64,000 bases of DNA, from NCBI GenBank assembly GCA_964603585.1, contig CAZRVK010000002.1, forward strand, positions 28,282 to 92,281, given 5' to 3'. Origin of the DNA: an uncultured Planctomycetales bacterium. Its GTDB lineage: Bacteria > Omnitrophota > Gorgyraeia > Gygaellales > Profunditerraquicolaceae. Each line of letters begins with the position of its first letter. Position 1 is the first letter of the stretch. The notes below the pieces were generated by a model. The model made no database searches. It was not told where the DNA came from and worked only from the letters and a program-made list of their open reading frames with translations. A program made the translations under genes and the position numbers. Positions 803-35,536 of this stretch are shown here, one piece after another.

Positions 803-2647
803 TTAGGTTTTTTCCTTGAACCGTGTGCGTGAATTTTTAAGCGCAAATAAACCAAGGCACAGACAAATAAACAAGATCATCCCTGAAAAACCCCAAACAA
901 AAGAAGAAGGCAGATAATAAAGAACGATCTTTGTATCGGCGGGGAGAACCCTGACCCCGATCAAACCATGATAACTGAACACCTTCTTCCCGAAAGAATG
1001 CCATCCGGGGAAATAATTCTGATTAACCACCAAAATATCCTCTCGCGCGGCATTTAGATCCAATACAAGCAAATTAGGGGAAAAAATCCTGCAGCCAACC
1101 TGGCCGCTATCTCCGACCAAGTAGTATTCACCCTTATACCCGTTTTCCTGGCGGGGAATGACCTTGCTTTCGATTTGATTGCCGATGCTATCATAGCCGG
1201 ATACTACCCCTTCATTTGCCCGGATGGAATCAAACATGTTTGCATGGTTGCCACGGGTCTGGGAAAAATCATTTTGCGGGCAAACAACCTCCGTCCGGTA
1301 ATTTATCGGCCTGGCATCTATTTTAAAGATCTTATCTGCCGGCAAAAATACGCCGCCTACGACCAGGATCAAGATCCCTGTATACAGAACAACCGCACCT
1401 TGGCGCGAAAGCCTAAGTTTTCTGAATAAATCCTGAACCACCAACCCTAAGATCACCGACCAACAAATCACGAATGGGGCAAAGAACATCTGCGGTTCAC
1501 GGTATGAGCTAAAGAAAAAATGCAATATTCGCCAAAGATTAACCGGGCTATTATCTCCTAAGGCCAGGAAAAAAGATATAATCCCGATTATTAAAATAGA
1601 CAACCTTTCTTTACGCAGTAAAAAAGGGGCTGCCATCAATGCTAAAATTGTGATGAAGGGGAAATTATACCCAAGCATATGTTCATGAGAAAAGAAAACA
1701 TCCACATATAAGTTGTGGCGGGAAAAAAAGAAATGCCCCGATTCCCGTAGAAACGAACTGAATACCTCGGGACTAAGAAAAACCGGCATAGCCGGCAATT
1801 GGATATGGCGCGGTAAAAGCCGCATCAGTTCATACAAAGGTAAAAGCTTAGGCCCGGCAAGAATCAGACAAACACACAACGCCTTTATAAAAAGGATAAC
1901 CGCCCTGTATTTCTTTTCTAAGATAAATCCCCAAAGAGATTCAATGCCTAAAACCATCGTGATTATGATGAAGGCATATACCGAACCGGAATAGACGCAA
2001 TGAGCCAATAAAAACGGTATTGGCCAAAAATAAACTACTTTTTCTTTGGCCTTTTTGAAAAACCAGAGCACCCAGGGTAAAAATGAGATATTTAAGAATG
2101 TAAAGCTCCCAACATAGGCAATGATATTGAATATATTCAACACAAATACCGCACTCAATAAACTAAATGGCCGGCCGGCCCCATAAAGGCGTGATAAGGC
2201 ATATACCCCCAGCATGGCTATAAAGGCCTGTACAAGGTATACAGATATCACTCCTAGGATTGAACCTAAAAAAATAACCGGCAGAAAGAAAAAAGACAGG
2301 AAATCGGACTCTGGATGCGCTAACCACGGCAGGCCGCCACCAATATACGGGTTCCAAAAAGGTAATTGGCAATACTCCAAGACAGCCTTACGCGATAGCT
2401 CATGATAGGTAAAAACCTTGTCCCAATCGGCACGATTAATTGGATGAAAATGACCAAATACTGTAAAAAACCACGCCGCACATACAATACAGAGACAAAG
2501 AACAAAAAAACGGTCATGATCGAATTTCTTCCGTACCAGAAATATTATCTCGTTTAGGCCCTTCATGGATTGCTCTCCAGAGACATGATTACTAACCGGT
2601 ATTTTTGCCTTCGCGCATGAATTCCAGCAATAGGACAATCGCGCCAT
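803..2647 (-). CDS. YfhO-family polytopic membrane protein (GT-C-fold glycosyltransferase-like).
   Basis: More than 10 hydrophobic helices. The C-terminal soluble domain contains NQNYFPGWHSFGKKV...GVRVLPADTKIVLYYLP, resembling the YfhO C-terminal signature. The true start is probably the internal M (MKGLNEII, about 2566), which would avoid overlap with the upstream radical SAM gene. Confidence 0.55.
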   Translation of the reverse strand: MARLSYCWNSCAKAKIPVSNHVSGEQSMKGLNEIIFLVRKKFDHDRFFVLCLCIVCAAWFFTVFGHFHPINRADWDKVFTYHELSRKAVLEYCQLPFWNPYIGGGLPWLAHPESDFLSFFFLPVIFLGSILGVISVYLVQAFIAMLGVYALSRLYGAGRPFSLLSAVFVLNIFNIIAYVGSFTFLNISFLPWVLWFFKKAKEKVVYFWPIPFLLAHCVYSGSVYAFIIITMVLGIESLWGFILEKKYRAVILFIKALCVCLILAGPKLLPLYELMRLLPRHIQLPAMPVFLSPEVFSSFLRESGHFFFSRHNLYVDVFFSHEHMLGYNFPFITILALMAAPFLLRKERLSILIIGIISFFLALGDNSPVNLWRILHFFFSSYREPQMFFAPFVICWSVILGLVVQDLFRKLRLSRQGAVVLYTGILILVVGGVFLPADKIFKIDARPINYRTEVVCPQNDFSQTRGNHANMFDSIRANEGVVSGYDSIGNQIESKVIPRQENGYKGEYYLVGDSGQVGCRIFSPNLLVLDLNAAREDILVVNQNYFPGWHSFGKKVFSYHGLIGVRVLPADTKIVLYYLPSSFVWGFSGMILFICLCLGLFALKNSRTRFKEKT

Positions 2648-4082
2648 GAACTTTGTTAAAAAGCTCTCTAAAGCTCCTGGTCCGCAATAAACTTCTTAAG
2701 ATAAAACCCGGACGCAGGTAAAATAAACGGTATCCGGCATTTACCAATAAAGACAATTCTTTTTCACTGAATAGGTCTGTGCAGATCTGGGGGATATACT
2801 GTTTCTGATACCCAAGCGGGTCTTTTGCGAACTTAAGCCAGAAATCTTCTTTGATCAAACCATTAGCCAAACAATCGCTGTAGAGTTTCGTTTTAGGATA
2901 TGCGGTCAAGAACCCGAATTGCACATAATCCAGATCCAACTCCCGGGCAAATTTAAAGGTATTGTAAATATGCTCCCTGCCCTCTCCCGGAAAACCAATG
3001 ATAAAGCTGCCTACGGCCAGGATCTTGTTTTTCTTGGTCAAAGCGACTGCATTACGGATATCTGCGACACAAACCTCTTTATTTATCTTCTTTAAGAATT
3101 GATCGCTTCCGGTCTCCAAGCCATAATGTATGCGCTCACAACCCGATTTTTTTGCAATACCCAGTAGTTCATCGGTTATCATATTTACCCGGGCACGAAA
3201 ACTCCAGGTAATGGGAAGCCGAGCCTTTAATATCGCAGCAGAGATATCTATCACGCGCTGTGTATTCAGATTAAATAGATCGTCATAAAAAAAGATTTCC
3301 CGTATCCCCAAAGCCGTTATTTGCTGTAACTCCTGTAAAATGTTGCCTGTGCTTCGCGTACGATAAGTCTTTTGGGGAGAATAACAGAATATACATTGGT
3401 ATGGGCATCCCCGACTGGAAATTATAGTCGCGACCACATTTTGGCTGCCCAGGGCACAGCGATATGCATAATTATCGATCATCGAACGGTCAATGACCGG
3501 CAAAGAATCCAGGTCATCAATATACCCCCGGTTTTCATTTATATATACGCTGCCTTTATCCCGGAAACCTATCCCTTTTATTTTATCCAACGCCTTATTC
3601 TCAACCAGATTATTCACCAGCTCAAAGAATGATTGCTCACCTTCCCCTCTAATAATGAAATCTACCGAGGGTTCTTCAAGCACTTGGTGCGGATAACAAT
3701 CGACGTGATGCCCGCCGAGCACGATAACCGCATGGGGATTGACGCTCTTAACCAGCCTGGATGTCAAAACAACATCGATCATTGCCGGAGTAAAAGTGGT
3801 GATTCCGACGATATCAGGCATAAAGGCAATGATCTTCTGCTCCAGTTGGGCATATGTAAGCTTATGGACCGCAGAATCGATAACTTTGACCTCTATCTCG
3901 CCGGGAAAGTTGGTTTTTAGATAGGCGGCAATAGATAATAGGCCTAACGGAGGATACTCCCCGATGGATGCGGTGATCGCCCGGGTTTTCTCCATCCTGA
4001 ACGTATTTTGGCGGGGCGGATTTATCAATAAAACCCTGTTCGCGCCAAGCCCTTTTTTCGGGACAGTCAAATCTTCGCTCAA
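2592..4082 (-). CDS. B12-binding (class B) radical SAM enzyme.
   Basis: N-terminal cobalamin-binding Rossmann-like domain (VLLINPP...PPLGLLSIAAYL...IVLGGHH...IIRGEGE). Followed by SSRGCPYQCIFC (CxxxCxxC). Confidence 0.85.
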   Translation of the reverse strand: MSEDLTVPKKGLGANRVLLINPPRQNTFRMEKTRAITASIGEYPPLGLLSIAAYLKTNFPGEIEVKVIDSAVHKLTYAQLEQKIIAFMPDIVGITTFTPAMIDVVLTSRLVKSVNPHAVIVLGGHHVDCYPHQVLEEPSVDFIIRGEGEQSFFELVNNLVENKALDKIKGIGFRDKGSVYINENRGYIDDLDSLPVIDRSMIDNYAYRCALGSQNVVATIISSRGCPYQCIFCYSPQKTYRTRSTGNILQELQQITALGIREIFFYDDLFNLNTQRVIDISAAILKARLPITWSFRARVNMITDELLGIAKKSGCERIHYGLETGSDQFLKKINKEVCVADIRNAVALTKKNKILAVGSFIIGFPGEGREHIYNTFKFARELDLDYVQFGFLTAYPKTKLYSDCLANGLIKEDFWLKFAKDPLGYQKQYIPQICTDLFSEKELSLLVNAGYRLFYLRPGFILRSLLRTRSFRELFNKVHGAIVLLLEFMREGKNTG

Positions 4083-4086
4083 CGGT

Positions 4087-5787
4087 TTAACCTTTCTTGA
4101 CTATAAAATAAGTGTTGATACCGCCCGATATTATATTCTCGATTTTAACCTGGATCGATGAGGCGCGGCAGAAATCCAGGAATTCAGCCAAAGATAATTC
4201 GTTGTGGGAATATCTCTGTGCACTGAAAATATAGTGATCATGCAGATCATCTTTGATGATTTTCTCTAATATTTCCCGTTTTCTTGCCCCATCCGCAGAA
4301 TAAAAAACCTGGGTGTAATGGATCGGCCGGATCTCGCCTCTTGACAAATACTCGGTTGACCCAATAAAAGCGTATTCAAAAGTAACCGGCTCGCGAATAT
4401 TTCTTTCTCTAAGATACCGGACTAATTCCTGATCCATATCCCCGGGAAAAGAAAATAAATATGGCCGGGCGACTCCAACAGTAACAATTGCGGCATTAAC
4501 AATAACACAGCTGAAGACTACGGTATAAATAATGCGTCTTACCGCAGGTATCGGATAATTATAGGATAATCGGCATAAAACGGCTGCGGATGCTATGAAT
4601 AAAAACGGCAATAAATTGATATAATAGCTTTCATTCCCCGGATAGCTTATTAATGTAATCAGCGCAAGCATTGCGGCCGGAAGGAACAGGAAAAATTTGA
4701 TCTTTTTAAAAGAATGATCTTTTATCCTCATATCTTTGTAGAAAAAAATAAAGATGAGAGCCGTAAAAAGCATAATAAAGGGTTCACTGCTATAAGCCCC
4801 AAGGGCAAAAGAGGTCATAAATCCCAGGTTTTTAGGGATCTTCGCAATAATTTCAGGTAATACTTTAATAAGAGAAGCGTCTGTCGAAGCCCCATCAAGA
4901 AAACGGTTAACCAGGAATAAAACACCCCCGCCAGATCCATCAATGTTATATAAAATCACGGGCAATGCACCCAGCACCAGGAACAATCCCGCAAATAAAA
5001 GCGGCACGGATTTTAATCTAACAGGGATCTTCATGATCAATAAAATCAATACCCAAGCAGAGAGCATAAAGATAACGGTCAGTTTAATATATAACGAAAC
5101 TCCTATGATAAAGAAAAGGAAGAACAATGCCGGCAAACTGCCCTCTTTTTGCCTATACTTATAAGCCAGTAAAAGAATGCCGATTTGCGCCAGCATGATG
5201 TAATTATCGCAAAAGCGTAAATTATTTATATTGCTCAAGAATGGCAGGGATGTCGCCAACAGAAGCACAGAGAGATTCGCTTCATCCAGGCCAAAGACAT
5301 GCCTTGATAATAACCAGGTAGCAACAAGGATCAACAGCCCAACCAGGTATGCATGGACCCTAAGAAAATCAAGATTATACATATCCCTGAACAAAAGCCC
5401 ATGAACATAAAAAGAGAGGTTGCCGCTTCCTCCATTTTTCATGATCGGCAGCCGCAGAGACGGGAATTGCCAAAGATAAGAAACAAAATTCGAATTACAC
5501 ACCGCTGTTTTTAGATTGCCGATCTGTCTTATACTTGCCGAGGAATATTTATCGGGGATGTCTTTATCAAAGATAGCATACCGGGGCTTATCATCTTCTG
5601 CAAACCCGGAAACTATCCTCGGGGAAACCGTCAAAAAAGGAGCTACCTCTTCGCTTATGAAATTATTATGAAAATGAAAATAGATCAGGCAACAAAGTGC
5701 CGCATATAATAAAAGTACCCCGGATAAAAAATACTTGCTTCTAAAAAAGATCCCAAAGGATACAATAGACAAATGAGGTATTTTCAT
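4087..5787 (-). CDS. Large polytopic membrane protein with a cytoplasmic or periplasmic C-terminal domain. Possible GT-C-like glycosyltransferase.
   Basis: About 12 predicted TM helices and a Gly-rich loop (NIDGSGGGV). Its stop/start is coupled to the neighbouring genes. No firm family motif recognised. Confidence 0.4.
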   Translation of the reverse strand: MKIPHLSIVSFGIFFRSKYFLSGVLLLYAALCCLIYFHFHNNFISEEVAPFLTVSPRIVSGFAEDDKPRYAIFDKDIPDKYSSASIRQIGNLKTAVCNSNFVSYLWQFPSLRLPIMKNGGSGNLSFYVHGLLFRDMYNLDFLRVHAYLVGLLILVATWLLSRHVFGLDEANLSVLLLATSLPFLSNINNLRFCDNYIMLAQIGILLLAYKYRQKEGSLPALFFLFFIIGVSLYIKLTVIFMLSAWVLILLIMKIPVRLKSVPLLFAGLFLVLGALPVILYNIDGSGGGVLFLVNRFLDGASTDASLIKVLPEIIAKIPKNLGFMTSFALGAYSSEPFIMLFTALIFIFFYKDMRIKDHSFKKIKFFLFLPAAMLALITLISYPGNESYYINLLPFLFIASAAVLCRLSYNYPIPAVRRIIYTVVFSCVIVNAAIVTVGVARPYLFSFPGDMDQELVRYLRERNIREPVTFEYAFIGSTEYLSRGEIRPIHYTQVFYSADGARKREILEKIIKDDLHDHYIFSAQRYSHNELSLAEFLDFCRASSIQVKIENIISGGINTYFIVKKG

Positions 5788-7325
5788 TTTCGTTGGCTGA
5801 ATGTAAGATGTTTTAAATAATATAATTCCAAACCGCTAAAGGATGTCTCTTTTAAAATAAGTTCCTGGCGGGACAAGTATTCATGCAATGGCTCTGAAAC
5901 CGGGACTACCCCTTCCTGCCAGGAGCCGCAAATCAGCCAGATCCCCTTTATTTTTACTGGTAATTTTGCCAGGTCTGTAATACCGATATGCGAAGTTCGC
6001 GTTATGGCATATAAGGCCTTATCCTGTCCGGAGTAACTTTCCTGGCTATCTACCAAAAAAATGTTTTTATGTAACGGCTCTGGCAGATAATAAAAAATGG
6101 GATAAATCAGGCTTGTATGGCTAACTGCGATAATATCACCCGGACGGTATAGCGTCTTAATAACCGCCGCCAATCCGGCAACCGGCTTTTTAACCACTAC
6201 CCCCACAGACGCAGAGAATTTTTCCTCCAAATAGTAGTTTTTAAGCGAAACGGCGGAAAAAACTGCCAGGATCAGGCAAAAAATAACAAAAACGGCCCTG
6301 TATTTCCTTAAAGATTCCATGCCGTATGCCAAGAGCATGTAGAAAAATACCGAAACTGTAATAAGTGTCCTGCTCATATACACCGGCCGCAACAGCAGCG
6401 AAACAATAAGAGTAAGCAGGCATGGGATCAGAATACAGCAAAATAACCATTTTCCCGCGGCTCGCGCATTATCACGGACAATATTTATAATACTAAACAC
6501 AAGGATCGCGGCGATAAATACCCCCTGGGATAGAGACAAGCCCCGCGTATAATACCCAAAAATAAAATCCTTAAAAACGACAAAAATATCTTTGATCGTT
6601 ATTCCGGGAGACCAAAAATATTCCTGCACGCGGGCAAAATGGTCGAAAAATACTCTACCCCATGGCAAAAATAATATTACAAGAATAAAGTTTGAGATCG
6701 CCCAGGATCTTAACAGTCCTACGGATCTATTTTTCCACAGGATATACAGTACCGCGCAATTTAATCCGGCTAAGAAAAAAAATGATGCGTATTGACAGTA
6801 TAAAGAAAGGGCTCCGGAAACGACATACCCGGCCAGATTTACTTTTTTCCCGGTATGCACCAGGCGAATGGCAAAATACGCGCTAAAAAGCGACAACATA
6901 AGATATAACGAATACATCTTTACTTCTTGCGCATAATAAATTTGAAACCCTGAAATGCTCATAAAAAGCGAGGTCCAAAGAGCAATCCTGCGGCCGCAAA
7001 GATCAACGGCAATTTTATAAGCCAGTAATATAGAGCATAGGCTAAAGATCACCGAGGGGAAACGTACTACCCACTCCGCTTGCCCAAGACCGGACCAGAA
7101 ATGCATAATCAACCTGAATAAGGGGGGATGCACCCCTTCGGCAGCACCACCCAACAAATCCGGGATATCCTTCCTGGATTCAAGCAATAAGAATGCTTCA
7201 TCAAACCAAAGGGATTTTGATCCTAACATGAAGATCCTTAAAGATATAGCCGCTAAAATAATGGCTATGAAATAAGAATTCCCCCTGAATATCCTGGCAG
7301 ATTTATCAATTAAGGTGTTTATCAT
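5784..7325 (-). CDS. GT39/GT83 (ArnT/PMT-like) GT-C-family glycosyltransferase.
   Basis: N-terminal TM helix followed by a first loop carrying SLWFDEAFLL (the DE(A) catalytic-loop motif of ArnT/PMT-type polyprenyl-phosphate-sugar transferases). Then about 11 TM helices and a C-terminal soluble domain. Confidence 0.6.
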   Translation of the reverse strand: MINTLIDKSARIFRGNSYFIAIILAAISLRIFMLGSKSLWFDEAFLLLESRKDIPDLLGGAAEGVHPPLFRLIMHFWSGLGQAEWVVRFPSVIFSLCSILLAYKIAVDLCGRRIALWTSLFMSISGFQIYYAQEVKMYSLYLMLSLFSAYFAIRLVHTGKKVNLAGYVVSGALSLYCQYASFFFLAGLNCAVLYILWKNRSVGLLRSWAISNFILVILFLPWGRVFFDHFARVQEYFWSPGITIKDIFVVFKDFIFGYYTRGLSLSQGVFIAAILVFSIINIVRDNARAAGKWLFCCILIPCLLTLIVSLLLRPVYMSRTLITVSVFFYMLLAYGMESLRKYRAVFVIFCLILAVFSAVSLKNYYLEEKFSASVGVVVKKPVAGLAAVIKTLYRPGDIIAVSHTSLIYPIFYYLPEPLHKNIFLVDSQESYSGQDKALYAITRTSHIGITDLAKLPVKIKGIWLICGSWQEGVVPVSEPLHEYLSRQELILKETSFSGLELYYLKHLTFSQRK

Positions 7326-8745
7326 GTTTTTTCCACAATCTTATCCTCGGCAGGAGCATATTCATCCCCGATCTTATATAATGTAAAAATTGCTTAAAAG
7401 ACTTTATTTTAAAAACTAACCGTACTATTTGTGATAGCCTTAGATAGAAGCCGCGATTAGCCAAAGAAACATATTTGCCGATCACATCCGGGGCAAAAAC
7501 TACTCCTGCGGCCTGCGGCGGAGTTGTCCAATCCTGTTCCTCAATAAACCTGCGCCAATAGTCATCTCCTCCGGAGCGCAAAAATGAATGGTAAAGCTCG
7601 GAATCGGGAAGCATCGTAAACTGGGTAAAGTGGACGAAATCAAGCCCCAACTGCCTGGATAATTCAATATCCTTTAAAATGTCTCCCCGGCCCTGGCCGG
7701 GTAAACCCAGCATAAAGAAACCAAATGCCATTATCCCGGCATTTCTGGTAAACCTGATGACCTCTTTGGTGCGTTCAAAAGAAACCCGGGGCCTGCCTAA
7801 CTGCTCAAGGCAAGGAGAATTAAATGATTCTATTCCATACATGACCATTTTGCAACCACTACCATACATAACTTTAAGCAAATCATTATCGATACAACTA
7901 AGATGCGTCCTTATCCGCCAGGATATATCCAGGCCTTTTTCCTTTATCCCTGCACACAGCCGATAAACCCGCTGTTTATCCGCAGTAAAAATCGAATCGT
8001 AAAAGTCTATCTCCCGGACCCCGAATTCATGATAACACTGGCTGATCTCATCCAGGATATCGTCAGCACTCCTTAAGAATAAATCTCCGGGCAAAGAACA
8101 ATAGCGGCATTTGAACAAACAACCTTGGGATCCGACAATCGAGGTGAAATTCTTTCTTTCCAAAAGTGGCGAATAGTATAATTTATTATTCAGTAACCTT
8201 CTCTCCGGAAAAGGAAGCCGGCTTATATTGGATGAATCTATCGCCGCAGAATTTACGATAATATCGCCATCCCTGCGAAAACACAAGCCGGGGATCTTAT
8301 CAAGCCGGGATTTATCCATAAATGAATCCAGAAAATCCGGAAGCGTCCCTACAGCGTTGCCAATAACCCCATAATCGATCGCCTGATGCTGCATTACCTG
8401 TTTAGGATACAGCTTCATCATAGAGCCGCCCACAATGACAGGTATATCCTGATATTTCTTGATCGCCGTTATCCATTCGAGTACACCGTAAAAAGTAGGG
8501 ATGGTTAGAGTAAAAGCGGTCGCATCGGCTCCGAATTCTTTTATCCTTTCGACTATTTGCTTAAGTTTCCAATTAAGGATATTTGCATCGATAATTACAG
8601 CTTGATGCCCGGAATTATTTATAAGCGCCGCCACATAAGCCAAACTAAGCGGAGGATATCCACTCATATTCTCAAGATAACCTTGCGGCCTGAAAGTACT
8701 GTCGTAATATTGAGTGATCCTGGGATATATTAGAGCTATTCTCAT
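7306..8745 (-). CDS. B12-binding (class B) radical SAM enzyme.
   Basis: IALIYPR...PPLSLAYVAAL...VIVGG (B12 domain). GSQGCLFKCRYC (CxxxCxxC). Confidence 0.85.
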   Translation of the reverse strand: MRIALIYPRITQYYDSTFRPQGYLENMSGYPPLSLAYVAALINNSGHQAVIIDANILNWKLKQIVERIKEFGADATAFTLTIPTFYGVLEWITAIKKYQDIPVIVGGSMMKLYPKQVMQHQAIDYGVIGNAVGTLPDFLDSFMDKSRLDKIPGLCFRRDGDIIVNSAAIDSSNISRLPFPERRLLNNKLYYSPLLERKNFTSIVGSQGCLFKCRYCSLPGDLFLRSADDILDEISQCYHEFGVREIDFYDSIFTADKQRVYRLCAGIKEKGLDISWRIRTHLSCIDNDLLKVMYGSGCKMVMYGIESFNSPCLEQLGRPRVSFERTKEVIRFTRNAGIMAFGFFMLGLPGQGRGDILKDIELSRQLGLDFVHFTQFTMLPDSELYHSFLRSGGDDYWRRFIEEQDWTTPPQAAGVVFAPDVIGKYVSLANRGFYLRLSQIVRLVFKIKSFKQFLHYIRSGMNMLLPRIRLWKKHDKHLN

Positions 8746-8749
8746 TTTC

Positions 8750-10180: not shown

Positions 10181-10208
10181 AACTGCCTTCTTTTTTATGA
10201 GCTTAAAG

Positions 10209-10964
10209 TTATTTGCTTATGAGCTGATTATTGATCATCGCTTCTTTAAGTTCAAGCACTTCGACAAAAGACCCGCGGTATCTATTCATTAATGTCTTTT
10301 CCTCTGGTTTTCTGTATTCTATATGCGTAAATGGAATAAAGGTGTGTACCATTTTTACAAATCCGACTCCTTGGGCGATCCAAAAGTCATACGTATGCAT
10401 ATGTTTACTGACTCCTTTAAGATCACGATAAGTATGTCTTACAAAAAAATGAAGGCACAAGAAATCCCCTGCCGCAGACTGCACCATCTCTTTGCCCAGA
10501 TAGGTTATCCCCGCTTCCACAGCCTCTTTATCCAGGAGATTGCCCTGATAATCATATATTGATTGCACCGAAAAAGAAAACTGGTTTGGGTTCATTTGTG
10601 ATGGCAGCATAAGCAGCGGGGGCGAAAATCTCCGGATGACCTTATGCGGCACCTGACCTGTCAGCTGCTGGTTCTGAAAGAACAATATCCCTGCGGGTGT
10701 ACGCACATTGGTCATCAAGCGGTCATGGTATTTACCCCGCCACAAAAAATCAAACTGCCGGCCAAGATTTCCGTCGAAAACATTTTGGACAGTAATCGAG
10801 ACAATATCTGACTCTGCATCTTCGTGGTAGAGATAGACATACTTGTCTCCTTCGTTAAGAGGGAAATACTTTATAATATCATAGGAATCCTTCCATTTCG
10901 CCAGGAAATATATGCCGAATAAAATAACCACAAACAACATGGCCGCAACACGCTTATTCTTCAT
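10209..10964 (-). CDS. Hypothetical membrane-anchored protein with an N-terminal TM helix/signal anchor. Function unknown.
   Basis: N-terminus MKNKRVAAMLFVVILFGIYFLA is hydrophobic. No recognisable domain. Embedded in the radical SAM/GT-C cluster. Confidence 0.45.
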   Translation of the reverse strand: MKNKRVAAMLFVVILFGIYFLAKWKDSYDIIKYFPLNEGDKYVYLYHEDAESDIVSITVQNVFDGNLGRQFDFLWRGKYHDRLMTNVRTPAGILFFQNQQLTGQVPHKVIRRFSPPLLMLPSQMNPNQFSFSVQSIYDYQGNLLDKEAVEAGITYLGKEMVQSAAGDFLCLHFFVRHTYRDLKGVSKHMHTYDFWIAQGVGFVKMVHTFIPFTHIEYRKPEEKTLMNRYRGSFVEVLELKEAMINNQLISK

Positions 10965-11089
10965 CTCTTATCCCTTCATTATCTTAAAAACTGTGTTTTA
11001 ATATCCTACCTATCGAACATTCTTCATAAAAAATCAGATCCCTGCCTTTAAGATTGCCCCGGATCCATACCTAAAATACAACATAAACT

Positions 11090-14402: not shown

Positions 14403-14412
14403 CTATTGCCCC

Positions 14413-28161: not shown

Positions 28162-29622
28162 ATGATCGACATCCTTTTAGTTCAACAATCCGCCGGCAGC
28201 TGGGAACGTCCAATCAAAAATCACATTTTGCCGCTCTCGCTTATCTCTGCGACAAGGCAAATCCCTAAGGATTTTAACATTAAACTGATAGATGTCAGGA
28301 TCCATGGCAAAAAAGCGCTCTTGCCCTATATCCGACAAAAGAATATCCTGATCGGCTTATCTGTTCTGACCGGACAATCGATCAAAAATGCTCTGGGAAT
28401 AATCCGATTTATAAAAGAGATCAACCCTTCCGCCCAAATAATCTTAGGGGGGATTCATCCAACTATTCAGCCGGAACAAACCTTAGCTTCTCCACTGGTT
28501 GATTACATCGTTACCGGACCTGGAGAAACTGCTTTAAAAGAGTTTTTAATACACAGGAGCGGGCCAAGGATAAGCAATCCGGACAACATCGAAGGCCTTG
28601 GATATAAAGACAGCGGTAAATTATTCATTAACCAGCCGTCGAAGTTGACTCCAGAAAAAATCGATTCCTTCGGTCTTCCCTCGTACGATCTCGTAGATAT
28701 CAAGCAATACCTGATTGATTATGACGGAAAACCAAGCATCCAAATAGAAAGCTCGCGCGGCTGTAATCAAAGATGTGCATTTTGTGTAAATTCCGCGCTA
28801 CGGCAAAATTGGGTTCCGTATTCCGCTGATTTCGTAATTAAGCACATTGAACACCTTTACTATACTTATGGCGTTAAAAGCTTCATTTTTATCGATTGGG
28901 ATTTCTTCACCGATTTAGAAAGGGCAAGACAAATTTGCCTGCAATTGATACAAAAGAAAATCGGGATCTCCTGGGTCTCTCAAGGGATTCATGTTAACGA
29001 ATTACTAAAGATCGATGATAAATTCATGAGATTACTTAAAGAAAGCGGATTTGTCGAATTCTGCGCTATAGGAGTCGAAAGCGGTTCAAAAAGGATCTTA
29101 AAAACAATGAATAAGGGGTATAATATGGAGGAACTTATTTCATTAAATAAGAACCTTTCCCGTTACAGAATTGCCCTAAAATACACCTTCATCATAGGTA
29201 CACCTTACGAACAATACAAAGATCTCCAGGAAACTATATCTTTAGCCCTGAAACTAAATTCAGATAATCCTTATGCGGCCAACTCCAGCTTCTATATTTA
29301 CACCCCCTATCCCGGGACAAAATTCTTTGATCAAGCGGTTAATTTGGGGTTTAACCCACCCTCAACACTGGAAGAATGGGGAGATGTCAGGGGCTGGATA
29401 ACTTCGTGGCAGCGCAACCGAGGGCCAAGGAGCAAGCTCGAAAAGATCCATTTTCTATCGTTGTTCACCACAGCAGTCTATTGGCAAAAATATCTTAAAC
29501 GTTTCAAACTGCTCAAGCCCGTTTTTCTTATATATAGTAAAATCGCCGTATTTAGATTAAAAAAAGGGTTTTTTCCCTTCATGCCGGAGTTCTTAATCTG
29601 GAAACAGCTAAGAAGGAATTAA
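28162..29622 (+). CDS. B12-binding (class B) radical SAM enzyme. Tandem paralogue 1 on the plus strand.
   Basis: ILLVQQSAGSWERP...IILGGIHPT...IVTGPGE. SSRGCNQRCAFC. Highly similar to the next ORF. Confidence 0.85.
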   Translation: MIDILLVQQSAGSWERPIKNHILPLSLISATRQIPKDFNIKLIDVRIHGKKALLPYIRQKNILIGLSVLTGQSIKNALGIIRFIKEINPSAQIILGGIHPTIQPEQTLASPLVDYIVTGPGETALKEFLIHRSGPRISNPDNIEGLGYKDSGKLFINQPSKLTPEKIDSFGLPSYDLVDIKQYLIDYDGKPSIQIESSRGCNQRCAFCVNSALRQNWVPYSADFVIKHIEHLYYTYGVKSFIFIDWDFFTDLERARQICLQLIQKKIGISWVSQGIHVNELLKIDDKFMRLLKESGFVEFCAIGVESGSKRILKTMNKGYNMEELISLNKNLSRYRIALKYTFIIGTPYEQYKDLQETISLALKLNSDNPYAANSSFYIYTPYPGTKFFDQAVNLGFNPPSTLEEWGDVRGWITSWQRNRGPRSKLEKIHFLSLFTTAVYWQKYLKRFKLLKPVFLIYSKIAVFRLKKGFFPFMPEFLIWKQLRRN

Positions 29623-29682
29623 CCACTTTGCCGTACGCGTTTATAGCACTTTTGCAGCTAAATCTAAAATCATTTTAAAATC

Positions 29683-31143
29683 ATGCTTAGCGCCTTATTG
29701 GTTCAACAGTCTTCCGGCAGCTGGGAAAAAGCCGTGTCTTCACCCACATTGCCTTTATCTTTGATTTCTGCCGCAAGACAAATCCCTAAAGAATACAAAA
29801 TCAAATTATTCGACGCCAGGATAGAAGATGAAAAAGATATCCTTGTGCATCTTAAACAGCCCGGGCTTCTTCTTGCCTTCTCGGTCCTTACCGGAGCCTC
29901 GATCAAAAATATGCTTTCGTTTGTTAAAAAAGCAAAAGCCATTAACCATAGCCTGAAAATACTTTTAGGCGGCATACATCCATCGATATTACCGGAACAG
30001 ACACTCGCTTGCCCTTTGGTGGATTATATCATTACCGGCCCGGGAGAATTACCATTAAAAGAATTGATCATCCAACGGAGTAAAAATACCGGCTTCAACC
30101 CGCGGGGGATCCCCGGTCTCGGGTTCAAAGAAGAAAACCGGATAATAATCAACCCCAAAAAACATCCAGATGCAAAAGAGATCAACAGCTGGGATCTTCC
30201 AAATTACAAGTTAGTAGAAATCAGAAAATACCTGTTCGATTACAACGGCAAACCTACTATCTATATCGAAAGTTCACGCGGCTGTAACCACACCTGTTCA
30301 TTCTGTTCAAATGTGCCTCTGCATAACAGATGGGTACCCTATCTTCCTGAACGGGTAGTAGCACATATACGCTATCTCTATGAAAATTACGGCATAAAAA
30401 GTTTTTTATTCATTGATTTGGATTTCTTCACTGATCTGGAGCGCGCCAGGCGGATTTGCGAGCTTATCATCAAAGAAAAACTCGGTATTTCCTGGCATAC
30501 CCAGGGAGTACGCGTCGCCGAACTGATGCAGATGAAAGAAGATTTTATCAATCTTTTAAAAGAAAGCGGATTCAGGGAATTCGAGGCGATCGGCGTAGAA
30601 AGCGGGTCTCAACACCTGATCAATCTGATAAAAAAAGGATTTAATGTTGCAGATCTGCCAAAACTCAATGCGTCTTTTATGAATTTCGCTATCCCTATGC
30701 GGTATAATTTTATGATCGGCTTCCCTAATGAAACATACGAAGACACAAAGCAAACCATAGACATGGCACTAACCTTGAACAGGCAAAATCCCCACGCCTC
30801 AAATTCGATGTTTTATATTTACACCCCTTACCCCGGGACAGAATTCTATCGCCAGGCAATTGAATTGGGATTTAAAGCCCCTGACAATCTCCAGGAGTGG
30901 GGAAATATCCAGGGATGGATAACTTCTCCGATACATGGGAGAAAAATACAGGATAGATTGGAAAGGATACATTTCTTGTCGATTTTCACCACAATGACAT
31001 ATTGGAGCAAATTCTTCAGGCGCTATCATATATTGTGGTTATTCTTTGCTGTCTATAGATATATCGCCCTCTTCAGGCTTAATAAGAAATTCTTCCGCTT
31101 AATGCCTGAATTCCTGATCTGGAAATTCATCCGAATGCGTTAA
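29683..31143 (+). CDS. B12-binding (class B) radical SAM enzyme. Tandem paralogue 2 on the plus strand.
   Basis: ALLVQQSSGSWEKA...ILLGGIHPS...IITGPGE. SSRGCNHTCSFC. Collinear similarity with 28162-29622 over the full length (for example YIYTPYPGT, ERIHFLS, MPEFLIWK). Confidence 0.85.
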   Translation: MLSALLVQQSSGSWEKAVSSPTLPLSLISAARQIPKEYKIKLFDARIEDEKDILVHLKQPGLLLAFSVLTGASIKNMLSFVKKAKAINHSLKILLGGIHPSILPEQTLACPLVDYIITGPGELPLKELIIQRSKNTGFNPRGIPGLGFKEENRIIINPKKHPDAKEINSWDLPNYKLVEIRKYLFDYNGKPTIYIESSRGCNHTCSFCSNVPLHNRWVPYLPERVVAHIRYLYENYGIKSFLFIDLDFFTDLERARRICELIIKEKLGISWHTQGVRVAELMQMKEDFINLLKESGFREFEAIGVESGSQHLINLIKKGFNVADLPKLNASFMNFAIPMRYNFMIGFPNETYEDTKQTIDMALTLNRQNPHASNSMFYIYTPYPGTEFYRQAIELGFKAPDNLQEWGNIQGWITSPIHGRKIQDRLERIHFLSIFTTMTYWSKFFRRYHILWLFFAVYRYIALFRLNKKFFRLMPEFLIWKFIRMR

Positions 31144-32708
31144 AAATCATCTTGCCTTATACGCACGATCCCGGCATAACTTGAAATATAAAAATACCCG
31201 TTATCCGCACAGATCGCTTCGGGAGACTGTCCGATATAATACGATCTTTCCAACTTACGGGAAGCCCTTGATAAGATATAACAATACCCGTCATTATAAC
31301 TGAAGAACACGACCTTTTGGTTATTCAAGGCATAAACCTGTCTCGCTCCAATAGGGGCCGCATAGGTATTAATTATCCCTAAATCGGGCAGCGAGAGTTC
31401 CCAAAGCCTTGTATCGCTTACTGCCGATATCAAAAGGCTGTTATGAAAGCCATCGTAGGCAAAAGAAGCTCCCTGTGATGGAAGACGGACTTTTTTAGTG
31501 ATCATAAACCGCTGCGGATCCAGTTCAAAAAGCGAGTCTTTTGCAGGAAACAGCAAAAAATAAAGCTTGCCGGTAGCGGGGATATATTGCGCCTTCCAGA
31601 TATCCCCGACATTTCCGGAAGATTCACTTTTTAAATCGATAATGCCAAGGATATTATCATTTGAAATGCTGTATTTAACTATTTTTTTTGAACGATTAAA
31701 GAAAAAAATCAGGATGTCATTCCCGTCGAAATAGAAGGTTATTAATTCTTCCTCATTCTTAAATAACCGGTTAAATTCAATTGCAAATAACTGTTTGAGG
31801 CTGTCTTTATCCACAACCTGGATCTTGGCCGGAAGCCATATCCCAATGAATATCCGGCTATTTTGATTATCGATCCTAAATGCCCTCACCCCCGATACAG
31901 GAATTGCTTTGATCTCTCGCGTCAGCAAATCTACCCTTAAAAAAGAAGGTGGATTAGTGATTTGCTGGATATCGGAAGCATACGAAACATAGGCAGAATT
32001 TCCCGAAACAACCAGATCTCGCGGCCTGGGCCAGAATCCGAATAATTTCCACCCCCACCCCTGTTTTATAAGATCATTTTCCCTTGCCCAATCTTTTATC
32101 TGGGTTAAAGGAAAAACTACTTCTACCTCTTTCTGCGCGTAAATCTTCTTGAGAGAAAACTCATTTTCTCCCGCCGCATAATAGCCAAAAACAACCAAAA
32201 CGGCAATAGATAGCGGCAGTAAAACCGTGATCGTAAAGCGCAAGATCTTTTTTCTCACCACAAAAAACGAATAAAACAAAATGTACAAACATATCATTGA
32301 TAAGGATAGCTTATAATGCACCCAAAAAAATGGTTTAAGGTATGCCGATAGGGTACTCAAGGCATATTCTGCCCCCTGGATCAACCCTGAATATTTGGGG
32401 AATAAAATGGTTGCTTCCTCACTGCGCGGGATATTTATGACAAGAAAAAAAAGAAAGACTAATATTACCGCTTTAACTAAGACTTGCAAATAGAATTTAA
32501 GGACTCCGGATTGCTTTTTGTCATAGTATTTGCTCATCAGGAATTCAAAGCAGATAAGAAGCGCTGGGAAAATGATTATTTGCAATAATGACAGCCTTGT
32601 CCTGCTGGAATATTCAAGGATAAGAAAAAGGCAGGATATGACCAAGACTCCGATAAAGAAAGGGAAAAAGATCCTGGCTGCCTGGCAGCAAAAACGGCAT
32701 AATTTCAT
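31140..32708 (-). CDS. Membrane-anchored protein. About 5 N-terminal TM helices plus a C-terminal, probably beta-rich (propeller-like), domain. Unknown function.
   Basis: N-terminal hydrophobic segments. The C-terminal roughly 330 aa is hydrophilic with repeated aromatic/Gly segments. No family motif recognised. Confidence 0.4.
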   Translation of the reverse strand: MKLCRFCCQAARIFFPFFIGVLVISCLFLILEYSSRTRLSLLQIIIFPALLICFEFLMSKYYDKKQSGVLKFYLQVLVKAVILVFLFFLVINIPRSEEATILFPKYSGLIQGAEYALSTLSAYLKPFFWVHYKLSLSMICLYILFYSFFVVRKKILRFTITVLLPLSIAVLVVFGYYAAGENEFSLKKIYAQKEVEVVFPLTQIKDWARENDLIKQGWGWKLFGFWPRPRDLVVSGNSAYVSYASDIQQITNPPSFLRVDLLTREIKAIPVSGVRAFRIDNQNSRIFIGIWLPAKIQVVDKDSLKQLFAIEFNRLFKNEEELITFYFDGNDILIFFFNRSKKIVKYSISNDNILGIIDLKSESSGNVGDIWKAQYIPATGKLYFLLFPAKDSLFELDPQRFMITKKVRLPSQGASFAYDGFHNSLLISAVSDTRLWELSLPDLGIINTYAAPIGARQVYALNNQKVVFFSYNDGYCYILSRASRKLERSYYIGQSPEAICADNGYFYISSYAGIVRIRQDDF

Positions 32709-32736: not shown

Positions 32737-34305
32737 TCACGAATCGTACCATTGAGGTTTTTTCATATGCATGAAGGCCGTTACCCCTTCAAATTTCTTC
32801 CGCCTGAAGAGCGTATCGGTTATCTCGACAAACATCATCCTTGCGGTATTTACAAAAAACCACCAATATAAATTGCGTTTATGTTTGTGGGGAGAAAATA
32901 ATCCCCGAACCAGCCAATGAGGACGGTAAAGAACATAACGTTTATTTAACTCCATATTCAATTTAGCAAATTCGTCGCGCGAAATACCAGAGGTAGAACG
33001 CATGGTAGGAGTAGCCCAATCATAATTCTTAAAATCGGTTTCCTCCAGCAAGCCTTTTTCCTTTGCCTCTTGATATAAATAAGTCCCGGGTACGGGTGCT
33101 ACAGGATGGAAGGCAGGATAATCGATATCGATCTCTCTGGCATAGTCAACCAGGCTCAACATGGACTTTCGGGTATCAAACGGCAAACAGGTCACGAATG
33201 TCCCCTGCCTGAACACATGCGGATATTTTTTCTTAAAGATCATAAAAACTTCTTTTACCATTTCCCGAGTGTAAACTGATTTCTTGATCTTTCGCAGATC
33301 TTCTGTGCAGCCACGCTCCACCCCGATCAATGGATGCACTAAACCGGCTTTGACCATTTTTCCTAAAACCCCAAGCCGTTCATCCCTTAGCACAAAATCA
33401 GCCCGCAGAAAAGCCCACCAAAACAGGTCTTTATAATTGCGCTTAATGAGCTTTTCGCAGAAATCTTCCGTCCATTTACTATCCACATTAAAAGTAGGAT
33501 CAGCCCAAATAAGATACCTGCGATTATACTTATTATAAAGGATATCCACCTCTTCAAGCGTTCTTTCAACACTCTTTGTCCGATACTCCGGGTTAACCTC
33601 CAATCGGCCTTTCTCGATATTTGTATCGGTCTGCCTGCCCCAAAAAGTCCAGAGAGAACAAAAATTACACCGATCAATACAACCACGTGAATGCTCTATG
33701 GTAGCGCTCTGCGGCCAAAGGTAGCCAAAAGGCGCGTATTTACCCATTGGCATAAGATCATAAGCTGGCATCGGTAAAGAATCGAGGTCTTTTATTAAAG
33801 GCCTTATCGCGGTCTTAATGATCTTGCCGCCGTTTTTATATGCGATGCCTTGGACGTTTAAAAGGTCTGTATTATCAATTAAAGCCCGGATTAAATCTAC
33901 AACTGTCTGGTCTCCCTCAAATCTTACAATAATATCGATTGGGTATTGGGCAAAACTGTAATCCGTCATCCAGGAGAAGAAATGCCCTCCAGCCATGGTA
34001 ATCACTTTGGGATTCAACTCTTTTGCCAGCTCAAATAACTTAACCGCCTCATGATGATAAAGTGCCTCTTCTCCGGCTCCGACAATATCCGGATTCTCTT
34101 TTTGGAGGATTCCCTTCAAACTACTCCAACCGATCTTCAGAGGAGGACAGTCGATAATCTTAACTTCGACCCCGGGGACTTTTTCTCTGATAGCTGCCGC
34201 AATAGAAGGTAATCCTAAAGGCAAAAGAAAGTTATCGGATTCATTGATAAACGGCCATAAATACCTGGGGGGACGCACCAAAACCACTTTTTTAAGAGTT
34301 TTCAT
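32737..34305 (-). CDS. B12-binding (class B) radical SAM enzyme.
   Basis: HSRGCIDRCNFC. VVLVRPPRY...PLGLPSIAAAI...TMAGGHF...IVRFEGD. I placed the start at the internal MKTLKKVVLVRPP (34305). The track ORF start (34359) would overlap the upstream GT9 gene by 47 nt. Confidence 0.8.
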   Translation of the reverse strand: MKTLKKVVLVRPPRYLWPFINESDNFLLPLGLPSIAAAIREKVPGVEVKIIDCPPLKIGWSSLKGILQKENPDIVGAGEEALYHHEAVKLFELAKELNPKVITMAGGHFFSWMTDYSFAQYPIDIIVRFEGDQTVVDLIRALIDNTDLLNVQGIAYKNGGKIIKTAIRPLIKDLDSLPMPAYDLMPMGKYAPFGYLWPQSATIEHSRGCIDRCNFCSLWTFWGRQTDTNIEKGRLEVNPEYRTKSVERTLEEVDILYNKYNRRYLIWADPTFNVDSKWTEDFCEKLIKRNYKDLFWWAFLRADFVLRDERLGVLGKMVKAGLVHPLIGVERGCTEDLRKIKKSVYTREMVKEVFMIFKKKYPHVFRQGTFVTCLPFDTRKSMLSLVDYAREIDIDYPAFHPVAPVPGTYLYQEAKEKGLLEETDFKNYDWATPTMRSTSGISRDEFAKLNMELNKRYVLYRPHWLVRGLFSPHKHKRNLYWWFFVNTARMMFVEITDTLFRRKKFEGVTAFMHMKKPQWYDS

Positions 34306-34312
34306 TTTATCC

Positions 34313-35536
34313 TTATCCTGCAGTTCGGAAACAAACGGTTTGAAGTTGTGAATATACATCTTCTGGTTTAATAAACTTCAAGCATTTATTATCCCGGCAG
34401 GCCGATTCCCGGTGATTGAATGCCGAAAAACACGGTGCACAGGGAATTCCTGAATAGAAGATCCTGGTATTCCCGGATAAAGGCGCGTACACCTGTGGAC
34501 TTTCCGGGCCGAAAATAATAAATTCCTTTACCCGCGTTAATGCAGCCAAATGGGCAAGCCCGCAATCATTAGAGATAAACGCATGCGCCATGGTTAAAAG
34601 GGCCAACACTTCTTCTAATTTCGTGGCGTTAACCAGATTAATGCACCGGGCATCATTCAAACGGCACTGTATCTGATTTGCCTTGGACAAAGAACCCTGC
34701 ATACCCACAAGCACCAAATAGTTATGTTTATCAAGCAAAATATTCTCTGCCAACGAAATAAAGTTATTTAAAGGCCAGACCCGAAGAGGGATATTTTCCT
34801 CCCCGGGATTCATTAAGACAAGCCTGGACCCAGAGCTAAATCCCGCAGATAACAACATCTCCTGCATCTTTTTTTTTATCTCTTCCGGAGGATAATACTG
34901 CGGCAAAACCAACTCCTCATCTTCGATCTTACGATTAAATTCAGGGGAAGATTTATCTTCTTCTTTGACAGCATCCCAGAACGAGATAAACGATTTACTG
35001 ATATGCAATAAAGGATTATATTGTACTTTATGGGTCAATAGATCCCCTCTATATAAGCCTTCGCTACAATAACGCCAGAAACCCACTCTTTTTACTGCAC
35101 CGCTTAGATACGCAAGAATGGCGGTGAATCTGGAGAATAATTCAAGATCCAAGGCAATATCTATCCTCTCCCTGCGTAATCTACGGATAACCCGCAAAAG
35201 ATCAAGAACGAACACGCCCAAGCTGTCTTCTCTGATAGTCAACACTTCTATGGCCGGGCTAAGATTAAGAGCGCTAAAAACTTCCTGATTCTTTCGAAAA
35301 GTCAAAAAAAATATCCTTGCCCCAGGATAGGCATTTTGCACCCGATAAATAAGCGGGTAAGTCAAAATAATACTCCCCATTTCAGATAATTTGATAAAGA
35401 GCACTTTATTAAAACTACCGCCGGTGACTTTGCGGTGGAAATTTAATAAACAAAATAAATAACGTAAACCCGTGATAAAGAAACAAAACGGGATACCAAG
35501 CCAATAATCTAATTGTCGCATAAATGCGTTGGGCAT
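34313..35536 (-). CDS. Glycosyltransferase family 9 (ADP-heptose:LPS heptosyltransferase-like).
   Basis: C-terminal LVLMNPGEEN...VNATKLEEVLALLTMAHAFISNDCGLAHLAALTRVKEFIIFGPESPQVYAP matches the GT9 signature (NDSGxMHLAAAxG...FGPT). Carries an N-terminal hydrophobic extension. Confidence 0.7.
   Translation of the reverse strand: MPNAFMRQLDYWLGIPFCFFITGLRYLFCLLNFHRKVTGGSFNKVLFIKLSEMGSIILTYPLIYRVQNAYPGARIFFLTFRKNQEVFSALNLSPAIEVLTIREDSLGVFVLDLLRVIRRLRRERIDIALDLELFSRFTAILAYLSGAVKRVGFWRYCSEGLYRGDLLTHKVQYNPLLHISKSFISFWDAVKEEDKSSPEFNRKIEDEELVLPQYYPPEEIKKKMQEMLLSAGFSSGSRLVLMNPGEENIPLRVWPLNNFISLAENILLDKHNYLVLVGMQGSLSKANQIQCRLNDARCINLVNATKLEEVLALLTMAHAFISNDCGLAHLAALTRVKEFIIFGPESPQVYAPLSGNTRIFYSGIPCAPCFSAFNHRESACRDNKCLKFIKPEDVYSQLQTVCFRTAG

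Follow-up and report, generated by a model that had tools for sequence, protein, structure and literature searches.

The 64,000-nucleotide stretch of DNA analysed here (the window, positions 28,282 to 92,281 of contig CAZRVK010000002.1 in assembly GCA_964603585.1) carries a gene island of roughly 37 kb in which a short Cys-containing peptide and a radical S-adenosylmethionine (SAM)/SPASM maturase are encoded together with eleven vitamin B12-binding radical SAM enzymes, two U32-family proteins, seven membrane glycosyltransferases of the GT-C class and a GT9 enzyme. Judging from gene content and from comparison with related loci, we tentatively read the island as one lineage-specific pathway that would modify the peptide and glycosylate either the peptide itself or the envelope, a reading to which we give slightly less than an even chance. 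The lineage is probably the phylum Omnitrophota, a group of abundant, very small and uncultured bacteria whose envelope and host interactions are poorly understood. All components come from known superfamilies, and the island is a variant of radical SAM systems for peptides that are made on ribosomes and modified after translation (RiPPs) combined with GT-C envelope modification. A literature search yielded neither this combination of components nor any paper describing the architecture, which an earlier note on the same DNA had already regarded as uncharacterized, and none of the curated family models extends to the peptide, its maturase, the U32 subfamily or those B12 enzymes that were scanned.

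The island extends beyond positions 803–35536, the interval in which the earlier note had placed the cluster with an edge at 803. Two members unseen by that note lie to the left of this edge, the peptide gene 652–735(-) and the radical SAM/SPASM gene 1–578(-), the latter interrupted by the end of the window, and the island continues leftward. The strong minus-strand bias described earlier stands, if with 24 open reading frames (ORFs) of at least 150 aa rather than 23 genes, and 22 rather than 21 on the minus strand (28162–29622 and 29683–31143 are the plus-strand exceptions). The abutting genes likewise form a minus-strand array, but this is a trait of the whole window: the entire 64 kb lies on one replication arm with co-oriented genes, nearly all ORFs being on the minus strand and GC skew being negative in 31 of 32 2-kb windows, and unidirectionality is therefore not peculiar to the cluster. 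Part of the start–stop overlaps are moreover an artefact of over-long ORF calls, as at 803–2647, which is 587 aa long in its database cluster.

The N-terminal portion of the peptide is rich in Lys and contains a K-[IV]-N-K motif, and its C-terminal portion, LSRYCRSGRVLW, is invariant and has a single Cys. Five loci were identified by position (the window, L010, L013, L084 and L141; L numbers are the locus or contig numbers of this analysis), and in all of them the peptide C-terminus, KLSRYCRSGRVLW followed by a stop codon, is encoded directly upstream of the maturase. A scan of metagenome contigs with a degenerate nucleotide pattern encoding the final ten residues (R-Y-C-R-S-G-R-V-L-W-stop) recovered the peptide in 52 contigs, with the maturase adjoining in 50, while the other two end less than 300 nt downstream of the peptide. 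Since the pattern demanded those ten residues, their invariance among the 52 hits is circular, and independent support for the peptide comes only from the five positionally identified loci and from two residues further upstream that the pattern left free. At these free positions, -13 and -12, all 52 sequences have Leu and Ser, respectively, while synonymous codons vary freely, which indicates selection on the protein. Most of the peptides (L086–L137 and the window) are 27 or 36 aa long, with 47 aa in one contig; the 36-aa forms have one extra 9-residue Lys-rich unit (roughly KKAKAKKVN) and a second K-[IV]-N-K motif. A promoter-like site at 790–762, upstream of the peptide gene, comprises TTGACA, a 17-nt spacer, TAAAAT and a TG extension; as a consensus match (11 of 12 positions) it scores best in window positions 1–19000.

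The maturase fragment in the window is 45% identical to a 495-aa gene product of L084, and the complete 499-aa gene is present in L140, a 20.8-kb Logan contig of the source sample (SRR15237810) from which the left flank of the island was read (window coordinate equals 12567 minus L140 coordinate). Its orthologues carry Radical_SAM, Fer4_12 and SPASM domains (Pfam) and are of the non-B12 type. In NCBIfam, the L084 orthologue is matched best by PapB (235 bits; cut-off 340), the SCIFF maturase (207; 425) and QhpD (203; 453), and CcpM is also among the best family matches of the orthologues, likewise below its cut-off. The best PDB match is CteB (5wgg, E = 1.5e-38), and about 95 residues precede the radical SAM core, the N-terminal extension of CteB-type enzymes. 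By these matches, a thioether-forming maturase acting on the peptide is a candidate function. SCIFF with ScfB/CteB, the ranthipeptides with PapB, and QhpD all resemble the window in that a radical SAM/SPASM enzyme is encoded next to a short precursor containing Cys. In contrast to these systems, however, the maturase scores under every curated cut-off, the core has a single Cys (six in SCIFF) and no PapB-type Asp or Glu partner, the leader is Lys-rich and very short, and the pair lies within a set of B12 radical SAM, U32 and GT-C genes that those systems lack. The island also recalls the proteusin polytheonamide, in which several class B radical SAM enzymes (the C-methyltransferases PoyB and PoyC) likewise accompany a ribosomal precursor and multiple C-methylations are possible. 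It differs in having no nitrile-hydratase-like leader, epimerase or dehydratase, in having eleven paralogues instead of two and an invariant core, and in having U32 proteins in place of an O2-dependent hydroxylase, together with GT-C enzymes.

PF02310 and PF04055 occur together in exactly 11 proteins of 803–35536, all above gathering scores (40.7–82.8 bits against a cut-off of 32.1 for PF02310, and 45.3–84 bits against 29.5 for PF04055), and the eleven class B radical SAM genes counted previously thus passed the check for a cobalamin-binding domain. The three cluster-binding Cys align in all of them, as the canonical CX3CX2C in ten and as CX4CX2C (CPHSKCRFC) in 14413–15768. Apart from the plus-strand pair, which is 54% identical, the paralogues share 22–31% identity, indicating that the array is not a recent amplification. 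We know of no characterized cluster with so many B12 radical SAM genes (eleven in 35 kb); the related 21-kb loci compared have at most eight. Four of the window enzymes belong to conserved orthologue groups, namely 32737–34359, whose orthologues are 63–83% identical among the 120 clusters listed (508 homologues at E <= 1e-30) and typically about 520 aa long, 14413–15768 (54–64% identity), 22639–24123 (46–59%) and 7306–8745 (42–46%). Placement in named B12 families was not supported: among the ten of eleven enzymes scanned, no curated NCBIfam equivalog cut-off was reached (BchE, HpnJ, HpnR, PhpK, ApyD, BzaD and others). HpnJ and BchE are the best matches of all ten, at 90–245 bits, with top scores of 245 bits for BchE (cut-off 481), at most 219 for HpnJ (578) and at most 98 for HpnR (650). 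Lipid and pigment pathways also use class B radical SAM enzymes (HpnJ, HpnR, BchE, GrsA, GrsB), among which these two are the nearest models, but the window enzymes score far under the equivalog cut-offs of 481–650 bits, and the related loci lack hopanoid, chlorophyll or tetraether genes.

The two U32 proteins (24143–25321 and 25338–26531), which Pfam confirms along with the class I methyltransferase and the GT9 gene named by the earlier note, are 47% identical to each other and score 42.8 and 43.5 bits against PF01136 (cut-off 22.4), in a match that covers only profile positions 2–67 of 233. The profile of their subfamily matches the U32 structure 5d88 (E = 9e-19), and nine Cys are invariant or near-invariant, including those of a C-terminal CX4CX2CX2C motif. 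The characterized subfamilies were not reached in the equivalog scan (TrhP 28.5 bits against 534, UbiU 16.7 against 440). Like UbiU/UbiV, TrhP and RlhA (PMC10990095), the window proteins have the U32 N-terminal domain and conserved Cys that potentially bind an iron–sulfur cluster, and the genes are in tandem as for UbiU and UbiV. They are set apart from these by the distinct C-terminal motif, by equivalog scores of 17–29 bits against cut-offs of 440–534, and, from UbiU/UbiV, by the lack of accompanying UbiT or quinone pathway genes. In L084, a gene for a 95-aa chorismate mutase (CM_2, 13454–13741) stands among the U32 genes, beside the orthologue of 32737–34359; the window has none. Prephenate is the oxygen donor of UbiU/UbiV, and the proposed U32 mechanism begins with oxidation of an aromatic ring (PMC10990095). 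The chorismate mutase gene fits a supply of prephenate for U32 hydroxylation and lends support to the hydroxylase function proposed earlier. From these family relationships the window proteins are most likely O2-independent hydroxylases of an aromatic substrate; the system itself encodes no such substrate other than the peptide's invariant Tyr or Trp, which would be a candidate target.

The same U32 subfamily is found at 36–39% identity in Desulfuromonadales and Binatia metagenome-assembled genomes (MAGs; L070 5835–12042, L059 and L067 7640–11290), where its neighbours are a type III polyketide synthase (PKS), an MMPL transporter, a UbiE/COQ5-type methyltransferase and a flavin monooxygenase. 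These loci look like an anaerobic route to hydroxylated, methylated phenolic lipids, and the type III PKS and UbiE-like methyltransferase beside the subfamily imply an aromatic substrate.

Seven membrane proteins of the island are GT-C by Pfam, paralogy or fold. PMT_2 is matched above threshold by 4087–5787, 5784–7325 and 12768–14402; the second of these does contain the DEA loop motif described before (WFDEA) and represents the commonest GT-C type in related loci. The three proteins previously called close paralogues are paralogous but not close, as 11090–12778 and 15814–17502 share 28–32% identity with each other and with 12768–14402 (BLASTP 8e-47 to 1e-72; 11090–12778 matches 15814–17502 at 1e-72 and 12768–14402 at 8e-47). 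The gene for the DUF2079 protein 21087–22631 (77.6 bits; cut-off 28.2), which we take to be a member of the GT-C clan, is next to the U32 genes also in L002, L004, L007 and L141. The protein 803–2647 has no Pfam or NCBIfam match of its own; several of its homologues carry PF09586 (YfhO), and an AlphaFold model built from 40 homologues (pLDDT 90.4, pTM 0.91) retrieved only GT-C enzymes as top matches in a Foldseek search of the PDB (AglB, STT3, PglB, AftA, Pmt4, AftD and DPY19). As modelled, this protein has a GT-C fold, in agreement with the YfhO-like GT-C proposed earlier. A profile–profile comparison of the unannotated membrane proteins with GT-C, made from alignments of 2–3 sequences, had given probabilities below 7% and was superseded by the Pfam labels of homologues and by structure prediction. 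Acidic motifs mark the first loop (SEEVA in 4087–5787 in addition to WFDEA, and a D-x-x-E invariant in the three paralogues), a DWD motif after the first transmembrane (TM) helix is invariant in the YfhO-like family, and by its inferred topology the acidic-motif loop would be extracytoplasmic.

While seven of the membrane proteins thus are GT-C, that class was rejected for 31140–32708, in which about five N-terminal TM helices are followed by a beta-rich C-terminal part. The latter is probably a beta-propeller; 5 of 26 homologues match the beta-propeller family PQQ_2, and others match related propeller families. The family is rare, with 41 representatives among 1.8 billion proteins, and a single-sequence AlphaFold model of 31140–32708 was poor (pLDDT 42.5) and excluded from the fold search. 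Missing from the previous gene list was 10209–10964, an exported or membrane-anchored, weakly DUF3108-like protein with DUF3108-like genes at equivalent places in L002, L004 and L141. The methyltransferase 20370–21047 has a weak UbiG-like match, and the GT9 protein 34313–35536 scores 75.1 bits against PF01075 (cut-off 22) and 93.2 bits against heptosyltransferase II (cut-off 134.6). Within 803–35536, the Pfam scan found no GT2, GT4, Wzx/Wzy, non-ribosomal peptide synthetase or PKS domain, as the earlier note had stated, and neither a cobalamin riboswitch nor any other RNA family was found when the window was scanned against Rfam. GT-C enzymes that modify the envelope in the periplasm with sugars from polyprenyl-phosphate donors are known from ArnT with ArnC/ArnD, from Rhizobium RgtA–E and from mycobacterial Emb/Aft; the island resembles these systems in its polytopic PMT_2, YfhO and DUF2079 types and acidic first-loop motifs. 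Some related loci come closer to an Arn-like combination by adding a small GT2 and a polysaccharide deacetylase, and L083 adds UbiA and a polyprenyl synthase. The window, in contrast, has no GT2 or deacetylase, has seven GT-C genes in one array, and interleaves them with radical SAM enzymes that have no counterpart in the Arn, Rgt, Emb or Aft systems.

Further evidence for a shared pathway comes from gene order in related loci. Among the nearest homologues of the U32, radical SAM and membrane proteins, the label Candidatus Omnitrophota/Omnitrophica predominates overwhelmingly, the few labels 'Patescibacteria group' and 'uncultured Planctomycetales' being probably a binning effect. The U32 subfamily occurs in at least 594 loci among species-representative genomes; B12 radical SAM genes accompany it in 57 of 85 U32 loci and GT-C genes in 33 of 85, and the U32 loci of Omnitrophota and some Elusimicrobia are packed with both. 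In nine non-redundant loci, no more than tens of bases (14 nt in L138) separate the maturase from the orthologue of 32737–34359 that comes after it, and the usual compact order in these loci is peptide, maturase, 32737-type, PMT_2 GT-C, 14413-type, U32, U32 and 22639-type. That this order was kept while the proteins diverged to 40–60% identity suggests that the peptide and its maturase, the U32 proteins, the GT-C enzymes and the conserved B12 enzyme belong to a single pathway. The order is rearranged in the window and in its closest relative (L139 plus L141), where the GT9 and 32737-type genes open the array and the peptide and maturase genes close it. L139 has the same succession of GT9 and radical SAM genes as the window and an opposite-strand radical SAM group at the place of the 28162–31143 pair. 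The relative has 7 B12 genes against 11, and the extra block of the window, from the methyltransferase gene to 4087, holds five GT-C genes including the three paralogues.

Other related loci vary this content. L002 (18506–21179), L004 (14402–17421) and L007 have an added Fer4_5 protein, an HGD-D (2-hydroxyacyl-CoA-dehydratase-like) protein and a BcrAD/BadFG-type activase, an oxygen-sensitive radical set that adjoins the U32, DUF2079 and radical SAM genes and is absent from the window. The Elusimicrobia MAGs L008 and L009 encode a U32 homologue at 52% identity and about ten radical SAM proteins, both B12-type and small non-B12, with no GT-C and no peptide motif. These two loci may be related to the radical-SAM-rich loci beside nitrogenase paralogues of groundwater Elusimicrobia (10.1101/765248), which were set aside as a different system.

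Family membership, the GT-C fold of the YfhO-like protein, gene order and peptide conservation were computed, and from these we infer every chemical step of the pathway, the order of the steps and the identity of the acceptor, as follows. The N-terminal domain of the SPASM maturase would recognize the 27-aa peptide, and the enzyme would form a thioether-type cross-link from its single Cys. The 32737–34359 enzyme, and perhaps some of its paralogues, would transfer methyl groups onto carbon or rearrange the peptide, while the U32 pair would use prephenate for the O2-free hydroxylation of an aromatic ring (Tyr or Trp), and the class I methyltransferase could cap the new hydroxyl. GT9 in the cytoplasm and the seven GT-C enzymes at the outer face would then attach sugars from polyprenyl-phosphate-linked donors, the acceptor being either the peptide or an envelope component that is made with it. 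The extra B12 paralogues may tailor sugars or sugar donors, and the differing numbers of radical SAM and GT-C genes among relatives may result in strain-specific decoration. The anaerobic logic of the earlier note, in which cytoplasmic radical and iron–sulfur tailoring precedes outer-face GT-C transfer from polyprenyl-phosphate donors, is retained here as reasonable.

Several observations weigh against a single pathway. No transporter, leader peptidase or signal sequence is visible by which a cytoplasmic peptide would reach the outer-face GT-C sites, and the window has no GT2-type polyprenyl-phosphate sugar synthase. With no curated family threshold reached, the B12 enzymes could either methylate or rearrange their substrate. 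In L091, L109 and L120 the peptide–maturase pair stands alone, with no B12, U32 or GT-C gene within 5–8 kb, and in Elusimicrobia L008 and L009 U32 and radical SAM clusters occur without the peptide. Five of the seven GT-C genes in the window have a radical SAM gene upstream; the idea that the two form cognate pairs in this order was not supported by 77 genome loci, in which adjacency was 0.32 against 0.27 in shuffled loci and 467 of 2000 shuffles reached the observed value. Co-occurrence of radical SAM and GT-C genes at the level of the locus does hold in the same set (Spearman 0.64), partly explained by taxon structure. Finally, the peptide core is invariant while the number of nearby B12 and GT-C genes runs from none to eleven, which would fit better with a constant peptide and a separate variable glycan. 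The last point, together with the missing exporter and leader peptidase and the stand-alone occurrence of both modules, favours the idea that two systems share one variable envelope island, with surface-glycan builders beside an independent, SCIFF-like small RiPP. The B12, U32, GT9 and GT-C enzymes would then tailor a lipopolysaccharide (LPS) core, O-antigen or glycoprotein glycan, the polyprenyl-phosphate sugars being C-methylated or rearranged in the cytoplasm. Glycan genes do recur in related loci, among them a small GT2 (20 loci), GT4, WecA-like, polysaccharide deacetylase, carbamoyltransferase, WbuX-like amidotransferase, Acyl_transf_3, GH5 and GDSL esterase genes. The window itself encodes an LpxL-like lipid A acyltransferase (45623–46573), LptE (59547–60164) and MurJ (56990–58549), which point to a diderm envelope with LPS as a possible acceptor for the GT9 and GT-C enzymes, and the difference of four B12 genes from the closest relative is typical of surface-glycan diversification. 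We nevertheless consider two systems unlikely, though with a real chance of being correct: the 32737–34359 orthologue follows the maturase with short gaps in the nine non-redundant loci and is itself followed by GT-C and U32 genes, operon order conserved across genomes so diverged usually reflects one pathway, and the proposed U32 chemistry needs an aromatic substrate, which sugars do not offer. We also know of no B12 radical SAM enzyme characterized in an LPS or capsule pathway.

The earlier note had instead suggested, from the neighbouring SQS/PSY, ispH and CrtI genes, an isoprenoid-derived membrane lipid or a polyprenyl-linked glycan as the substrate. In a lipid pathway of this kind the island would tailor an isoprenoid-derived or prenylated aromatic membrane lipid, for instance a carotenoid or a quinone-like compound, with the B12 enzymes methylating or cyclizing it, the U32 proteins hydroxylating it and GT-C glycosylating it. 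Carotenoid-type genes do occur on both flanks in this genome: the left flank (L140 13592–18221) holds two lycopene-cyclase-domain genes (102 and 98 aa), a TPR gene, a polyprenyl synthase, UbiA and an FAD oxidoreductase, and together with the right flank it resembles a C50-carotenoid-type gene set split by about 37 kb. L083 even has a polyprenyl synthase and UbiA within the cluster, where a radical SAM gene and the 32737–34359 orthologue come directly after them, and both the phenolic-lipid-type neighbours of the U32 subfamily in other phyla and the weak UbiG-like match of the methyltransferase would suit a lipid. Homologues of SQS_PSY, IspH, CrtI or lycopene cyclase are, however, found in none of the approximately 140 related loci, including the closest relative L139, which has the same GT9-first order with different genes upstream of GT9; it is the glycan genes that recur instead. 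The co-occurrence with isoprenoid or polyprenyl genes expected earlier is thereby reduced to polyprenyl synthase or UbiA genes in 3 of these loci (L083, L069 and this genome). In addition, the radical SAM enzymes do not reach the HpnR, HpnJ or BchE thresholds, the window has no hopanoid-type cyclase, and a lipid substrate leaves the peptide and maturase unexplained. We thus regard a lipid pathway as improbable, and the SQS_PSY, IspH and CrtI-like genes (35676–38820) as probably outside the system; the carotenoid-type flanks would be local context, possibly created by insertion of the island into a carotenoid locus. It is also conceivable, if very improbable, that the small ORF is no substrate and acts in cis as a regulatory leader or ribosome-arrest peptide controlling the downstream radical SAM gene. 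The arrest peptides TnaC and SecM likewise have invariant C-terminal residues, and the same gene always comes right after the ORF, whose last 12–13 residues are invariant and which contains a Lys-rich tract. Its spacing to the downstream gene is, on the other hand, variable (an apparent -27 to 522 nt if maximal ORF starts are taken), members of the downstream enzyme's family act on neighbouring short peptides, the enzyme has their typical N-terminal extension, and no conserved RNA element was detected. An anammox (Brocadiales) ladderane or S-layer glycan cluster was rejected, as the literature search yielded nothing for it and the homologue labels point to Omnitrophota.

Table 1. Genes and other features of the island and its right flank, in window coordinates.
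Feature	Position	Strand	Basis
Radical SAM/SPASM peptide maturase, N-terminal 192 aa (499 aa full)	1–578	-	Pfam of orthologues, L140
27-aa precursor-like peptide MKAKKINKDTKSKKKLSRYCRSGRVLW	652–735	-	conserved upstream of maturase orthologues
Promoter-like site	762–790	-	consensus match only
YfhO-like GT-C glycosyltransferase; probable true gene 803–2566 (587 aa)	803–2647	-	homologues, AlphaFold, fold search
B12-binding radical SAM enzyme	2592–4082	-	Pfam
GT-C (PMT_2), ~11 predicted TM helices	4087–5787	-	Pfam
GT-C (PMT_2), WFDEA loop motif	5784–7325	-	Pfam
B12-binding radical SAM enzyme; orthologues elsewhere at 42–46% identity	7306–8745	-	Pfam
B12-binding radical SAM enzyme	8750–10180	-	Pfam
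Exported or membrane-anchored 251-aa protein, weakly DUF3108-like	10209–10964	-	
GT-C paralogue, no direct Pfam match, ~12 predicted TM helices	11090–12778	-	BLASTP
GT-C (PMT_2)	12768–14402	-	Pfam
B12-binding radical SAM enzyme, CX4CX2C; conserved orthologue group	14413–15768	-	Pfam
GT-C paralogue, PMT match sub-threshold	15814–17502	-	BLASTP
B12-binding radical SAM enzyme	17542–18954	-	Pfam
B12-binding radical SAM enzyme	18970–20391	-	Pfam
Class I SAM methyltransferase	20370–21047	-	Pfam
DUF2079 polytopic membrane protein	21087–22631	-	Pfam
B12-binding radical SAM enzyme; conserved orthologue group usually beside U32 genes	22639–24123	-	Pfam
U32-family protein, putative O2-independent hydroxylase	24143–25321	-	Pfam
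U32-family paralogue	25338–26531	-	Pfam
B12-binding radical SAM enzyme	26636–28081	-	Pfam
B12-binding radical SAM enzyme, member of 54%-identical pair	28162–29622	+	Pfam
B12-binding radical SAM enzyme, other member of 54%-identical pair	29683–31143	+	Pfam
Membrane protein, ~5 TM helices and probable beta-propeller	31140–32708	-	
Most conserved B12-binding radical SAM enzyme of the system	32737–34359	-	Pfam
GT9 (heptosyltransferase-like), first gene of the minus-strand array	34313–35536	-	Pfam
Flank: SQS_PSY	35676–36542	+	Pfam
Flank: IspH	36543–37382	+	Pfam
Flank: CrtI-like oxidase	37375–38820	-	Pfam

Two further features of the window stand apart from the island's function. A 252-aa ORF with a TTG start, 23570–24328(+), lies antisense within 22639–24123 and is almost certainly spurious. 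The prfB gene for release factor 2 (main ORF 53083–54075) contains a classic programmed +1 frameshift in 54075–54190(-), around 54124: the short upstream frame MLENIQSKLSSLGICLEQLRGYL stops at CTT TGA, an AGAGG Shine-Dalgarno-like element precedes this site, and the +1 frame follows.

Taking the island as a single peptide-to-envelope pathway, its product might represent a new class of peptide-derived compound, broadly distributed in the phylum and made without oxygen, by SPASM cross-linking, B12-dependent C-methylation, U32 hydroxylation and GT-C glycosylation, a stronger proposal that we consider somewhat doubtful. Given the invariant core, such a product might serve these very small cells as a conserved cofactor or envelope anchor. 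If true, this would be the first peptide pathway known with U32 hydroxylases or GT-C transferases; a single pathway would give U32 hydroxylases a role outside quinone and RNA modification, would provide the first GT-C enzymes working with a ribosomal peptide, and would show how strict anaerobes substitute for oxygen-dependent tailoring chemistry. The 27-residue peptide offers a concrete experimental handle on these questions, and the combination of an invariant peptide with a core radical SAM enzyme at 63–83% identity makes the system a candidate for something central to Omnitrophota biology.

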